A stretch of 64,000 bases of DNA, from NCBI GenBank assembly GCA_963665815.1, contig OY762463.1, positions 3,872,001-3,936,000 of the forward strand. The letters are read 5' to 3'. The stretch is from Candidatus Cloacimonadales bacterium. Lineage in GTDB: Bacteria > Cloacimonadota > Cloacimonadia > Cloacimonadales > JAIOQZ01. The notes under the pieces were generated by a model that had not been told where the DNA came from, did no database searches, and saw nothing but the letters and a program-made list of their open reading frames with translations. The position numbers were made by a program, and so were the translations under genes. This document shows positions 31,926 to 36,030 of this stretch, one piece after another; the stretch's first letter is position 1, and every line of letters begins with the position of its first letter.

Positions 31926-32132
31926 TTAAATTTATGTTGTAGAAAAAGTGTATATACAAAGTTAAAAAAATATTTTCTTTTTGAACTTATACCCTGTAGC
32001 TGTAGCCTCCTTTACTATAAACATTTATTTAATTTTCTTCATACAGACAAATAGTTAAATTTCAATTTGCATTTTGACAAATATATGGTAATTTATATAA
32101 AATGAATATAATTCAAAATTGTGGAGGTAATG

Positions 32133-32852
32133 ATGTCTGTTAAAAAAATATTAATCGTAACCATGATGCTTATTCTTACTTTTTCTTTTTTATTAGCGAG
32201 AGAGATAAAAGTTAGTTTAGCTCAGATGCCTGTATATGCCGAAAGTCGAGATAAAGGCGTTCTTGTTGACTTCGTAAAGGCTATGGATGAGAAGTCAGAC
32301 CATCAGTTTACAATAGAAGTTGTTCCATTTGCCAGGTCAATGAACTATGTGAAATCAGAGAAAGTTGATTTTCATATGCCTCTCATAAAGCTTCCTGATT
32401 CAGAAAAGCTCCAATTAGACTATGATCATTCAACCGCAACAATATTTCATGTAAACTTTGTTCTTTACACTAATAAAGAAAAGCCTTTGAACAAGAATAA
32501 GCTCGGGGATTACAAAATTGAAACTGACAGGGCGCATACAGCATATTTCGACTTTCCGATTACTCCTTCATCAGATTTATTAGCCAGTCTGAAGAGGCTT
32601 AATAGTGGCAGGATTGATGGAGTAATATTTGCAGATAATGCATGTGATCCAATAATAAAGACTGAGAAATTTGAAAATATCAGAAGAGAGCTGTATAAAA
32701 GATTTGATGTAAAGATTATTCTTCCCAAGGGTAATAGGGGAGGTGATATCGATAACATTCTGACAGATTTGATAGAGAAGCTGAAAGCAACAGGAGAGTT
32801 TGATAAAATTATGGGAGTAATAGACGCTCCTTACAATAACTGGCAACCATAA
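32133..32852 (+). CDS. Extracytoplasmic solute-binding protein (family 3-like)
   Basis: Signal peptide; GVLVDFVKAM, VPFARS, LKRLNSGRIDGVI; no partner transporter adjacent. Confidence 0.7.
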   Translation: MSVKKILIVTMMLILTFSFLLAREIKVSLAQMPVYAESRDKGVLVDFVKAMDEKSDHQFTIEVVPFARSMNYVKSEKVDFHMPLIKLPDSEKLQLDYDHSTATIFHVNFVLYTNKEKPLNKNKLGDYKIETDRAHTAYFDFPITPSSDLLASLKRLNSGRIDGVIFADNACDPIIKTEKFENIRRELYKRFDVKIILPKGNRGGDIDNILTDLIEKLKATGEFDKIMGVIDAPYNNWQP

Positions 32853-32914: not shown

Positions 32915-32947
32915 GTCTGGTAGTTATCCATAGTTCATGGAGTTAAT

Positions 32948-33026
32948 CGGGACGTAGAGCAGTCCGGCTATCTTTCTCGAATGGGTTCGAGCGGTCGTCC
33001 CGAGTCAATCGGGATCATCCCGACCA
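32948..33026 (+). pseudogene. tRNA-Pro-like chimera 1 (T-arm replaced; D-stem substitution, one G lost from anticodon loop)
   Basis: CGGGACGTAGAGCAGTCCGGCTATCTTTCTCGAATGGGTTCGAGCGGTC-GTCCCGAGTCAATCGGGAT-CATCCCGACCA. Confidence 0.8.
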
Positions 33027-33215
33027 TATAAAAAAATATCATCCAATAATTATAGATAGTTTTCAAACACCTGCAAGTTCTAAAATGTATTTCCAACTTC
33101 TAATTAGTTCTGCAATTCAGGATAATCATATGCGAAAAAGCAATCCAGACTAATATGCTCCTCATATATAAAAAAAATTGTCAAAAAATTAGTGTTCTCA
33201 AAACATAGCTACAAT

Positions 33216-33295
33216 CGGGACGTAGAGCAGTCCGGCTAGCTTTCTCGAATGGGGTTCGAGCGGTCGTCCCGAGTCAATCGGGATCATCCCGACCA
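33216..33295 (+). pseudogene. tRNA-Pro-like chimera 2 (T-arm replaced)
   Basis: 5' portion identical to the tRNA-Pro at 33750; T-arm replaced by GTCCCGA-GTCAA-TCGGGAT; ends CATCCCGACCA. Confidence 0.8.
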
Positions 33296-33484
33296 TATAA
33301 AAAAATATCATCCAATAATTATAGATAGTTTTCAAGCACCTGCAAGTTCAATTATGTATTTCTGACTTCTAATTAGTTCTGCAATTCAGGATAATCATAT
33401 GCGAAAAAGCAATCCAGACTAATATGCTCCTCATATATAAAAAAACTTGTCAAAAAATTAATGTTCTCAAAACATAGCTGCAAT

Positions 33485-33564
33485 CGGGACGTAGAGCAGT
33501 CCGGCTAGCTTTCTCGAATGGGGTTCGAGCGGTCGTCCCGAGTCAATCGGGATCATCCCGACCA
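33485..33564 (+). pseudogene. tRNA-Pro-like chimera 3 (T-arm replaced)
   Basis: Identical to chimera 2. Confidence 0.8.
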
Positions 33565-33749
33565 TATAAAAAATCATCCAATTATTAATTAACATACTCA
33601 ACACCTGTAAGCTTAATAATTTATTTCGAACTTCTAATTAGTTCTGCAATTCAGGATAATCATATGCGAAAAAGCAATCCAGACTAATATGCTCCTCATA
33701 TATAAAAAAACTTGTCAAAAAATTAATGTTCTCAAAACATAGCTGCAAT

Positions 33750-33827
33750 CGGGACGTAGAGCAGTCCGGCTAGCTTTCTCGAATGGGGTTCGAGCGGTCG
33801 CAGGTTCAAATCCTGTCGTCCCGACCA
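33750..33827 (+). tRNA. tRNA-Pro(GGG)
   Basis: CGGGACG TA GAGC AGTCCGGCTA GCTT T CTCGA ATGGGGT TCGAG CGGTC GCAGG TTCAAAT CCTGT CGTCCCG A CCA; C1:G72, A73. Confidence 0.93.
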
Positions 33828-33847
33828 TTTTTTTTTCCGCTCCCAAA

Positions 33848-33882
33848 CGGTCGTCCCGAATCAATCGGGATCGTCTCGACCA
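33848..33882 (+). repeat. Isolated 3'-half copy of the variant tRNA end
   Basis: CGGTCGTCCCGAATCAATCGGGATCGTCTCGACCA. Confidence 0.8.
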
Positions 33883-34047: not shown

Positions 34048-36030
34048 TTATCTACTGGTTTCCTCCATTAAATCAGCCAGTCTCTCAACAGATGAAGGAA
34101 TACCGCCGGAACGCCTGTAGATGTATTTCAGGGTGTTACGGTCAATATTGTCATTCTTATATATGTCTTCCACCATTTCAGTTGTTTCTTTCTGAGTTAA
34201 GGGGCTGAGAATAATTCTAGAAACTGAAAAGCAGTCGAAATTAGAGAACAGTAAATCCAGAATTTCACCTTTCTCACTGGTACACACAATTTTAATTGGA
34301 TTTTTCATGTCAGGTTTCAGATGCGAAATAATATGCAGACTCTCAGCATCTATAAATTCTGCATTATCCAGAATAAACATGACAGGTCTGTCTTCAGTTA
34401 TTTTACAGGAGAAGTATTGGAAAGCTTCAGCAATTTCTTTTATCTCCTTAGCTGTTTTAGCAGGTTGATCTAAAGACGCATTTGGTTTGGCAATAGAGTA
34501 AATAATGTCCTCATGTCTGAAACCTTGCGAATCAAAATTACATAGTTTATTCCAGCTTCTTTTGAATTGTGCATATAGATCATCTTCTGGCTGTTCTCTC
34601 ACAATATGGAAATAGCTGTCCAGAATAAGTCTTAAAACATTATACGGTACAATTGTACTAAGTTCATTCAGATATATCTTTTCCATTCTGTAGTCTTCAA
34701 TACTCATAACAGATTCGCTTATCAATCGGCTTTTTCCTGCTCCTTTCACACCTTCAACAATGACAAGCTCATTATCAGAAGAGTCAAGCTGGCTTAATAT
34801 CTGATCTAACTCCTTTTTTCGTCCGATAAATTTGTAGTTATACTTAAGCATTGTATCTTGTATGTAGCCTTCCAGGTGGTGGACTTCTACAGGTTTCAGG
34901 AATCCTTTCAGATTCAGCTTTTTACCGCTTTCTACAAACTGAAACTGAGACTTGATATCTGAATACAGGAAGTGATCGGTAAGAATCTCACCTTTATCTG
35001 CATCCATCATCAGGCGTGCTGCAAGATTAACAGACTTCCCGAGAGAAGTATATTCCTTTATGTTTTTACCACCGGTATATCCTGAATAGGCGAAACCCGA
35101 TGCCAGTCCAATAGATACTTCGGGGACTTCTTCAATTATTTTGAGAGCAAATCTACTCATTTTATGTAGAATTCTTGCATCTGATTTGGGAGAACCAAAG
35201 ATTATCAATCCGATTACACCTTTATCTGTGGCATCAAGTTTGTTCATCAGTCCACCATAATGATCCAGCAGCTCATGGATAATCTTAACTGTATCCTCTA
35301 AATCTTTCATGGGTATTTTTTTGAGACTGATAAAACAATAGGCAGCATGACGAATTTCATTTTGTGGTTTTGTACGAATAAATCTCGGATGTAAAAACTT
35401 TTCCAGTGTTCTCTCGGAGTACATATACACAATTTCATGGGGTAAAGAAGAATAGCTTTGAGTAGAAAGGGTATAAACTTGATCTTTCTGTTCAAAATGC
35501 TCTATTCCAATAAAATTCGCTGCTGAAGCTGAAAATCCCACTTCGTTTTTATTGGATGAAATCTCAGCAAGCTCATTAATGATATCTCCAAAAAAGATAT
35601 ATTCGCATTGAAGATTGTTGCGGAATATTTTCCAGTGTATATTACCAAAGCAGACAGTAATACGTGCTTTGATGTCAAAATCTCCCAGACAGCAGGAGTA
35701 ATTGCTGTTGGATTTCAGCCTGGACTGGATGCTGCAGGCTGCACTTAGAATATTATCAGGGTTACATTCAGGGAATACGGCACAGAAAGCATCACCTGCA
35801 AAGACTGAGATAAATCCACCGTTACGCAGGATTATATCAATGGAATCCTCGAATGCCGCAGCAATATAATTACTCAGTTCCTGAGCCCCAAGATTGCTTT
35901 TATCCTGTAGGTAGTTGCCGGTTTTAGTGAAGTCTGCAATATCAAACAGGAGTATAAAGCCTTTGAGACAGCCGTTGAATTCGTTTTTTTCGTACTTGCT
36001 CAAGATGAATGGCGGTATATATCTGATCAT
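34048..36030 (-). CDS. Tandem class III adenylate/guanylate cyclase fused to a STAND/AAA NTPase (soluble-AC-like), no C-terminal TPR region
   Basis: LLFDIADFT and VFAGDAF metal-binding Asp motifs, DKG, GKSVNLAARLM; FIGRKKEL..GVKGAGKSRL; ILDNAEFID; RSGGIP. Confidence 0.85.
   Translation of the reverse strand: MIRYIPPFILSKYEKNEFNGCLKGFILLFDIADFTKTGNYLQDKSNLGAQELSNYIAAAFEDSIDIILRNGGFISVFAGDAFCAVFPECNPDNILSAACSIQSRLKSNSNYSCCLGDFDIKARITVCFGNIHWKIFRNNLQCEYIFFGDIINELAEISSNKNEVGFSASAANFIGIEHFEQKDQVYTLSTQSYSSLPHEIVYMYSERTLEKFLHPRFIRTKPQNEIRHAAYCFISLKKIPMKDLEDTVKIIHELLDHYGGLMNKLDATDKGVIGLIIFGSPKSDARILHKMSRFALKIIEEVPEVSIGLASGFAYSGYTGGKNIKEYTSLGKSVNLAARLMMDADKGEILTDHFLYSDIKSQFQFVESGKKLNLKGFLKPVEVHHLEGYIQDTMLKYNYKFIGRKKELDQILSQLDSSDNELVIVEGVKGAGKSRLISESVMSIEDYRMEKIYLNELSTIVPYNVLRLILDSYFHIVREQPEDDLYAQFKRSWNKLCNFDSQGFRHEDIIYSIAKPNASLDQPAKTAKEIKEIAEAFQYFSCKITEDRPVMFILDNAEFIDAESLHIISHLKPDMKNPIKIVCTSEKGEILDLLFSNFDCFSVSRIILSPLTQKETTEMVEDIYKNDNIDRNTLKYIYRRSGGIPSSVERLADLMEETSR

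Follow-up and report, generated by a model that had tools for sequence, protein, structure and literature searches.

Hairpin-substituted tRNA-Pro(GGG) copies in tandem in a Cloacimonadales genome: a probable nuclease-less derivative of tRNA-linked GIY-YIG/hairpin cassettes

Tandem repeats beside a tRNA gene are familiar from the tyrT locus of E. coli, where each RtT repeat (Rfam RF00391) contains a copy of the tRNA 3' end. Described here is a tandem array beside the tRNA-Pro(GGG) gene of a Candidatus Cloacimonadales bacterium, in which copies of the gene carry a hairpin in place of the T-arm. It lies in a 64,000-nt stretch of the genome (the window; GenBank assembly GCA_963665815.1, contig OY762463.1, positions 3,872,001 to 3,936,000, forward strand), and on balance appears to derive from a cassette combining a tRNA copy, a hairpin and a small GIY-YIG nuclease gene. 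Fragments of tRNA genes are also reportedly present at the borders of integrative elements, for which Williams in 2002 is said to have distinguished sublocation classes of tRNA-targeting integrases. GIY-YIG enzymes have been associated both with hairpin repeats and with tRNA genes. The Ssn proteins, exemplified by the 94-aa SsnA of Neisseria meningitidis, are described as GIY-YIG nucleases that cut single-stranded DNA (ssDNA) beside their own hairpin repeats, termed NTS/SRM (Chenal et al. 2025, PMC11893778). SegB of phages T4/T6 is described as a free-standing GIY-YIG homing endonuclease, encoded in a tRNA gene cluster, which recognises the T-arm motif GGTTCRANTCC in tRNA genes (PMC2330249), and SegB cleavage followed by homologous recombination is reported to cause tandem amplification of a 718-bp tRNA unit that is unstable without selection (PMC13096335).

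The array, including the genuine gene, occupies window positions 32945-33827, with units starting at 32945, 33213, 33482 and 33747 (Table 1). Alignment of the units gives periods of 268, 269 and 265 bp, and Tandem Repeats Finder reports 32945-33800 as 3.2 copies of a 269-bp period with 94% matches (score 1510). Three hairpin-bearing look-alikes lie 5' of the genuine gene, which is the only GGG isoacceptor gene called in the genome by ARAGORN, and a fifth, 3'-only fragment, here termed R, lies 3' of it. Units 1-3 agree with the genuine gene from 3 nt upstream of its position 1 as far as CGGTCG, after which they read GTCCCGA-GTCAA-TCGGGAT and then CATCCCGACCA, where the gene has GCAGG-TTCAAAT-CCTGT and then CGTCCCGACCA. 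Instead of a T-arm they have a stem of 6-7 bp capped by a 5-nt loop, GTCAA, with no canonical T-loop or 5-bp T-stem, and the chimeras are unable to form the tRNA elbow. The acceptor stem of all three is not fully paired, having a C6.A67 mismatch with the 3'-terminal strand. The tRNA-like parts of units 2 and 3 are identical, and unit 1 has two further lesions, a G to T change in the D-stem and the loss of one anticodon-loop G, which leaves a 6-nt loop. Fragment R consists of CGGTCG, the hairpin with the loop ATCAA, and CGTCTCGACCA. An earlier sequence-only reading of the window had described four units 265-269 bp apart, the last a canonical tRNA-Pro(GGG) and the first three with this T-arm swap and a C.A mismatch, copies 2 and 3 being identical and copy 1 carrying two more lesions. 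The alignment bears out the spacing, the swap, the mismatch and, for the tRNA-like parts, the relation between the copies, and ARAGORN and Rfam agree on the last unit; fragment R, inside the span of that reading, was left out of its description. The ARAGORN scoring it had suggested yields a single call, the genuine gene. Units 1-3 are not called by ARAGORN, nor by Rfam even at E<=10, where the genuine tRNA is the only one recovered; weak Rfam matches to a snoRNA, HPnc0260 and mir-2518 (E 0.2-7) were dismissed as noise in the AT-rich spacer.

Table 1. Features of the array at tRNA-Pro(GGG), in window coordinates
Feature	Position	Strand	Evidence
Chimeric pseudo-tRNA-Pro unit 1, 79 nt	32948..33026	+	alignment, fold; uncalled by ARAGORN/Rfam
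Hairpin GTCCCGA-GTCAA-TCGGGAT, unit 1	32997..33015	+	pattern match
Spacer 1	33027..33215	+	blastn
Chimeric pseudo-tRNA-Pro unit 2, 80 nt	33216..33295	+	alignment, fold
Hairpin, unit 2	33266..33284	+	ssDNA folding energy
Spacer 2, 95.7% identity to spacer 1	33296..33484	+	blastn
Chimeric pseudo-tRNA-Pro unit 3, tRNA-like part same as unit 2	33485..33564	+	alignment
Hairpin, unit 3	33535..33553	+	pattern match
Spacer 3, 88-89% identity to spacers 1 and 2	33565..33749	+	alignment, blastn
Genuine tRNA-Pro(GGG), canonical T-arm	33750..33827	+	ARAGORN; Rfam 52.2 bits
Solo 3' fragment R	33848..33882	+	pattern match, comparison with sister species

The full 19-nt hairpin pattern has four matches in the genome, all at the array locus (reversed control 0), so that a chance origin can be dismissed, and its core, TCCCGA-N3-7-TCGGGA, occurs 36 times (reversed control 0). 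A second array is present at 525003-525700 on the minus strand, where three chimeras with a 200-bp period, one of them 5'-truncated and two full, precede a copy whose canonical T-arm is identical to that of tRNA-Pro(GGG). The Rfam tRNA model matches this terminal copy at 43.7 bits, a 38-nt insert taking the place of the anticodon arm, and ARAGORN misses it; the copy carries a 23-nt hairpin insert in the anticodon stem, has the anticodon CAG, and reads as a degenerate tRNA-Pro(CGG)-like sequence. Solo hairpin-substituted 3' fragments also adjoin tRNA-Arg(CCT), with the hairpin within the T-loop, and tRNA-Asp, in both cases downstream of the gene. The remaining core copies lie in intergenic mosaic repeats of ~122 nt or in 23S rRNA.

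Some of these occurrences have features of their own. The mosaic repeats, with the TCCCGA hairpin as their core, are found at ~25 sites (e.g. C1:3201174, 3201296 and 3204118; locus L028) and have two flank types, TTGAG-hairpin-AAATCTGCGAC and CCCTGAG-hairpin-AAGGGAA; in another genus of the family the same hairpin stands between different flanks, CTAACATAA-hairpin-TTACAACG. Two related tRNA-Arg-type hairpin fragments lie 32.6 kb apart (C1:3423619-3456300, loci L047 and L048), enclosing a type I restriction-modification system with a methylase fused to a DUF559 domain, a Rad52-like gene, a Bro-N protein, a short tyrosine recombinase, tyrS and asparaginase-type genes. This 32-kb stretch was considered as one element but could not be defined as such; it includes tyrS.

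The same hairpin recurs in tRNA copies of other bacteria. Within the order, the strict Pro-type pattern is present in 7 of 203 genomes, this one included (reversed control 0), 3' of tRNA-Pro(CGG) or tRNA-Pro(GGG) as one to three tandem fragments and once as a 5'-truncated chimera. Counts of the TCCCGA hairpin in close relatives are 37, 40, 21, 3 and 1 (controls 0-1 for the comparisons with 37, 40 and 21), and such sharp variation among close relatives is as expected of a mobile repeat. In species-representative genomes the strict pattern occurs at 43 loci, judged by titles to be mostly from Bacteroidota, Ignavibacteriota, Cloacimonadota, Balneolota and Peregrinibacteria; ARAGORN places a tRNA-Pro within 450 nt of 25 of them, and about 8, in GC-rich coding-like DNA, look like chance matches. 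Locus L071 shows the layout found here, with chimera, canonical gene and R fragment in that order, and in L107 and L082/L090 a chimera precedes the canonical gene. A hairpin takes the place of the D-arm as well in L107, L111, L082/L090 and L079, and the anticodon stem is itself TCCCGA/TCGGGA in L069, L089 and L121. In a looser metagenome scan (119 loci, of which 80, L117-L196, were tabulated, mostly chance matches in GC-rich coding DNA, and the other 39 counted only for the three with GIY-YIG open reading frames (ORFs)), the same hairpin was found in copies of tRNA-Asp (L121, L163, L148), tRNA-Ala (L132, L171) and tRNA-Gly (L187), whose acceptor stems are unrelated to that of tRNA-Pro. The stem is conserved across phyla, and tRNA-Pro copies keep the first T-stem pair, G49.T65, on substitution.

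These comparisons bear on an account without any mobile element, in which slippage at a GTCG microhomology and quasi-palindrome-templated mutation created the hairpin locally and ordinary tandem duplication multiplied it, as at E. coli tyrT. Such a local rearrangement would explain why the hairpin arms equal the tRNA-Pro acceptor strands, and R loops are often like a T-loop minus 1-2 nt (TTGAA, TTCAA, TCGAA); R units copy the lineage-specific downstream terminator of the local tRNA and therefore duplicate in place, and the nuclease gene expected of a mobile cassette was not found in this genome. It is nevertheless doubtful, since the same TCCCGA/TCGGGA core lies over the T-arms of Asp, Ala, Gly and Arg copies with differing termini and over anticodon arms (L121, L089, L069), since the 3' arm in this genus is TCGGGAT though the local 5' strand is CGGGAC, and since hairpin-substituted copies are linked to GIY-YIG genes. 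The RtT repeats, for their part, have neither a T-arm-for-hairpin swap nor a nuclease partner, and the array has no RF00391 match in Rfam at E<=10. The acceptor stem points the same way: the tRNA-Pro(GGG) genes of 10 relatives, none with R within 300 nt, all have a CGGGATG/CATCCCG acceptor, so the C.A mismatch pairs an ancestral A67 with a derived C6. The CATCCCG of the chimeras and the arm TCGGGAT are thus ancestral in type, and the R part is no fresh copy of the local gene. The sequence-only reading had derived the hairpin arms from tRNA-Pro termini, which the Asp, Ala, Gly and Arg copies with their different acceptor stems contradict; judged from these comparisons, the hairpin is better taken as a cassette written over the T-arm. 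The genome-wide hairpin search it had suggested led to the 525-kb array, the fragments at tRNA-Arg and tRNA-Asp and the copies in relatives. Of its two interpretations, one, tRNA-mimic or decoy RNAs, is taken up below; the other, a palindromic element that overwrites T-arms and later becomes amplified, fits the recurrent and often tandem substitution across isotypes and genomes, while lacking the GIY-YIG partner, which that reading had not seen.

The ORFs adjoining hairpin modules encode single-domain GIY-YIG proteins of 80-95 aa, with PF01541 matches in 11 of 11 tested (51-65 bits). A hairpin-substituted module adjoins such an ORF in L079, L089, L111, L192 and L075, and the recurrent layout is an intact tRNA, in some cases a terminator, the GIY-YIG ORF, a hairpin-substituted tRNA copy and a terminator, the order of tRNA, ORF and hairpin copy being seen in L192, L121, L089/L179, L075 and L230. 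In L079, L111 and L192 the ORF stop codon is formed by nucleotides 8-10 of the tRNA-like copy. At the tRNA-Asp locus of the sister species, an 81-aa ORF runs into the tRNA fragment and stops there, within the loop of the hairpin, its last codons, GCA GAA GGT CGT CCC GAG TAA, consisting of the tRNA-Asp fragment and the hairpin 5' arm. Within the order, the closest homologues of this ORF (E<=3e-28) have the hairpin and the tRNA-Asp 3' end at or just past the ORF end in seven of seven cases, and the ORF-less units neighbouring it resemble internal deletions of the cassette. A tRNA or transfer-messenger RNA (tmRNA) gene lies within 600 nt of 12 of the 32 small GIY-YIG frames found at 30 loci in the order. 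Among the tabulated metagenome loci, an ORF stands beside 4 of ~12 tRNA-linked matches, compared with none of ~68 others. There are 349 protein homologues at E<=1e-5; those named among the 120 listed come from metagenome-assembled genomes (MAGs) of the Fibrobacterota-Chlorobiota-Bacteroidota (FCB) group and related bacteria (Marinimicrobia, Fidelibacterota), as 'GIY-YIG nuclease family protein', and the solved structures nearest to the protein encoded by the relatives' ORF are the UPF0213 proteins 1zg2 and 1ywl. From this linkage, the small GIY-YIG gene is a likely protein partner of the hairpin element. This genome has no intact small GIY-YIG gene, its GIY-YIG matches being uvrC, a UvrC/Cho-like 348-aa protein and an interrupted 95-aa frame; the 348-aa protein, near 3.84 Mb, was considered as the small nuclease and set aside as UvrC/Cho-like (GIY-YIG plus UVR motif).

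Small GIY-YIG ORFs were also seen in two other settings. In both rRNA operons of one relative (G006; L239 and L241) a 94-aa GIY-YIG ORF lies inside the 23S rRNA gene, bracketed by the short inverted repeat ccagcacctaattca / tgaattaggtgctgg, an insert that looks like an ORF-bearing intervening sequence. In the sister species a small GIY-YIG ORF lies ~150 nt 3' of the tmRNA gene (L243).

The relatives' ORFs resemble the Ssn system (PMC11893778) in encoding a single GIY-YIG domain of about 80-95 aa, in lying beside hairpin-forming repeats that are also dispersed (the TCCCGA hairpin being found 36 times here and 37, 40 and 21 times in three relatives), and in having a conserved stem with free loop sequence. 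They differ in that the published SRM search motif matches neither R nor any TCCCGA hairpin, and it is not enriched in this genome (8 matches, against 5-8 in shuffles); the hairpin here sits within tRNA gene copies, replacing the T-arm, and the word tRNA has 0 occurrences in the main text of the Ssn paper. Compared with the Ssn enzymes, of the cd10448 clade, the relatives' proteins are putative nucleases, recognised by their Pfam GIY-YIG domain and UPF0213 similarity. By analogy with Ssn the hairpin would be the recognition structure of the nuclease, and it could serve either in that way or as an 'immunised' target. The unit 2 hairpin, folded as ssDNA, has a predicted energy of -6.0 kcal/mol and is more stable than the native T-arm, at -2.2. 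The likeness to SegB, as far as that system is described in the sources cited above, lies in a GIY-YIG nuclease gene among tRNA genes, and the motif read by SegB is exactly the part missing from the chimeras. SegB is by contrast a larger phage protein acting on double-stranded DNA, and the amplified phage tRNA is intact and useful, whereas here the protein is an 80-aa bacterial one, absent from this genome, and the amplified copies have no T-arm. No account of tRNA copies with such a hairpin substitution, or of small GIY-YIG cassettes linked to bacterial tRNA genes, came up in a literature search.

The array is thus probably, though by no means certainly, a nuclease-less derivative of a tRNA-linked GIY-YIG/hairpin cassette that was amplified by unequal recombination, with the chimeras as pseudo-tRNAs, probably still expressed from their copies of the presumed promoter. 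It contains copies of the neighbouring tRNA with an arm replaced by the hairpin (units 1-3 and fragment R) and has the cognate intact tRNA adjacent; since the genome has no intact small GIY-YIG gene, it is read as an ORF-less derivative and not as a complete cassette. A complete cassette comprises an intact tRNA, usually a terminator, the 80-95 aa GIY-YIG gene, and that tRNA a second time, as a copy or as its 3' part, in which TCCCGA-loop-TCGGGA replaces the interior of the T-arm and sometimes a hairpin also replaces the D-arm or anticodon arm. Once the nuclease gene was lost, short R fragments or chimeras of full length would remain; a promoter-bearing chimera may then have arisen here by homologous recombination of R with tRNA-Pro(GGG), unequal crossing-over between the ~270-bp units would have given three copies, and selection would have kept a single canonical gene, the one at the 3' end. 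What is particular to this genome is the ORF-less, promoter-bearing, amplified form, present in two arrays.

Several observations weigh against this explanation. None of the six frames of the array contains a GIY-YIG remnant, and the spacer matches nothing else, so that descent from a cassette is argued from the shared hairpin module. No ORF adjoins the 13 Cloacimonadota tRNA-Pro R loci examined (L005, L006, L031-L035, L039, L076, L078, L086-L087, L095 and L110, some being duplicates of one place), the Pro-type link to a GIY-YIG ORF coming from Ignavibacteriota, Bacteroidota and Peregrinibacteria, and an ORF was found at only 4 of the 43 genome loci, inspected over 450 nt on each side. The hairpin core is moreover invariant beside diverged spacers (in G193 compared with G197, and in units 2 and 3, which differ only in a 65-nt patch), an invariance that could reflect selection on RNA or DNA instead of relic status.

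Selection of this kind would be expected if the chimeras were functional tRNA-Pro mimics, with their own promoters, drawing off, as sinks or decoys, an anticodon or acceptor nuclease, prolyl-tRNA synthetase, modification enzymes or the hairpin nuclease, or being trimmed to a T-armless tRNA. The spacers are relevant here. They are ~190 nt long, and their 3' end (~41-48 nt) also precedes the genuine gene and the sister species' tRNA-Pro; for spacer 1, part of the evidence is a match of query 803-984 to G001. The shared stretch is presumed to be the promoter of the tRNA units, an assignment based solely on conservation with the sister species; the promoter/terminator scan gave no consensus sigma-70 promoter for the tRNA units, with as many matches as in shuffles. 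The remainder of the spacer has no blastn match elsewhere in the genome. Spacers 2 and 3 are identical over the 3' ~115 nt, their differences clustering in a ~65-nt stretch with ~30% divergence, and units 2 and 3 are nevertheless identical over the tRNA-like part. Folding also leaves room for a structured product. In the minimum-energy fold of unit 2 the 5' acceptor strand pairs with CGUCCCG of the hairpin 5' arm, leaving the rest as a 3' tail hairpin; this alternative partner, CGUCCCG-A, is perfect, and the predicted result is a T-armless cloverleaf with a 3' tail. Two independent arrays in one genome and a hairpin invariant across phyla are likewise as expected of functional mimics. What makes the mimics unlikely is the state of the copies: the D-stem of unit 1 is broken and its anticodon loop reduced to 6 nt, the sister species' homologue of the 525-kb gene is represented by two dispersed hairpin-type copies with different lesions, anticodons CAG/CTG and no canonical copy, most members of the family consist of a 3' fragment lacking both the 5' half and a promoter, and the sister species has no chimeras at its tRNA-Pro(GGG) locus. 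A role in decoding or charging is made less likely by the lesions of unit 1, by the mismatch in the acceptor stem and by the anticodon variation among the sister copies. The narrower proposal that the chimeras are expressed, elbow-less tRNA-Pro mimics kept in several copies, processed to a T-armless tRNA-Pro(GGG) or serving as nuclease decoys, is quite unlikely; were it true, the cross-phylum invariance of the hairpin would reflect an RNA or ssDNA recognition function outliving the nuclease gene.

Each spacer also contains an identical 7-codon mini-ORF, ATG CGA AAA AGC AAT CCA GAC TAA, preceded by AGGA (33123-33146, 33392-33415 and 33660-33683), which is probably a chance occurrence in AT-rich DNA.

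In the sister species, the single tRNA-Pro(GGG) directly follows uvrC and is itself followed by four tandem 57-bp R units, the counterpart of fragment R. This resembles the borders of integrative elements, where partial 3' tRNA copies lie 3' of an intact gene and the downstream content varies between species, and the fragments might accordingly be attachment-site (att) remnants of successive tRNA-targeting elements, carrying tyrosine integrases, at an island hot spot. Like att repeats, they run from near the anticodon or the variable loop to the 3' end; the DNA 3' of the tRNA is not the same in the two species (here a cyclase-ATPase ORF, in the sister species a TIR-like one); and an island with a recombinase gene is present at tRNA-Arg(CCT). 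This origin is highly unlikely given that an att repeat is expected to include the T-arm, which is always replaced and never kept in the fragments, that R units stand in tight tandem merely 20-100 bp apart and copy host-specific terminators, that R lies between the tRNA and the housekeeping gene nth in L034 and L035, and that no tyrosine recombinase (PF00589) lies within ~96 kb, the four in the genome being at 2.06, 3.29, 3.44 and 3.81 Mb. None of the eight flanking ORFs is a recombinase; the genome search behind the ~96-kb figure covered the tyrosine type (PF00589) and not serine recombinases. The pattern is also near-absent from 2.9 million viral contigs, where neither of two matches is an R module; an attP origin in phages was rejected on inspection of these two matches, which represent coding-like DNA and a different repeat beside an integrase-like ORF. 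The repetitive extragenic palindromic (REP) sequences and REPINs mobilised with REP-associated tyrosine transposases (RAYT; Y1) resemble the present repeats in forming short hairpins that are dispersed and conserved in the stem. In this genome both Y1_Tnp genes are flanked by hairpins other than TCCCGA, and a RAYT/REP origin was rejected.

The genes around the array were noted in passing. On the minus strand at window 34048-36030 lies a gene for a 660-aa protein with a nucleotide cyclase domain and an AAA ATPase (Pfam), and the sister species has instead (locus L006, 2220 onward) an ORF with a TIR-like start, by eye; the region 3' of tRNA-Pro(GGG) is possibly a variable locus of defence type. 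A 243-aa ORF (32121-32852) that separates uvrC from the array has a weak SBP_bac_3 match below the Pfam cut-off and is absent in the sister species.

An assembly artefact is an improbable source of the array. The genome consists of a single closed contig of 3.96 Mb, and k-mer depth was obtained from Logan contigs of three runs (X1-X3) of one sample, probably the source of the assembly. Depth in X1/X2/X3 is 12.4/17.7/8.15 in the flanks, 36.6/63.7/32 at the hairpin junction (32983-33035), 31/54/27.4 at 33629-33800 and 12.2/20.9/10.4 in the unit-3-specific spacer (33544-33658). The shared pieces thus stand at ~3x and the unit-3-specific piece at ~1x, which indicates about three chimeras. This support is limited, because the runs probably supplied the assembly itself and none of their contigs or read records reaches across the whole array, as would also be the case if one real copy had been multiplied in assembly. 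That possibility is scarcely credible in view of the unit-specific variants, the depth pattern repeated in three runs, the closed contig and the comparable arrays at other loci.

For annotation, chimeras at L071, L096 and L104 are called tRNA-Pro by ARAGORN, so that tRNA gene counts in FCB-group MAGs are inflated or confused. More broadly, the array offers an ORF-free view of a module that seemingly defines a large, little-described family of selfish elements lodged beside tRNA genes, with the family trait that, in a copy of a tRNA gene, a specific hairpin is written over the T-arm and in some cases over further arms. Should the family's small GIY-YIG proteins prove to be Ssn-like hairpin nucleases, three subjects that have so far stood apart, Ssn repeats, the homing of nuclease genes at tRNA genes and nuclease-driven tandem amplification, would become linked.

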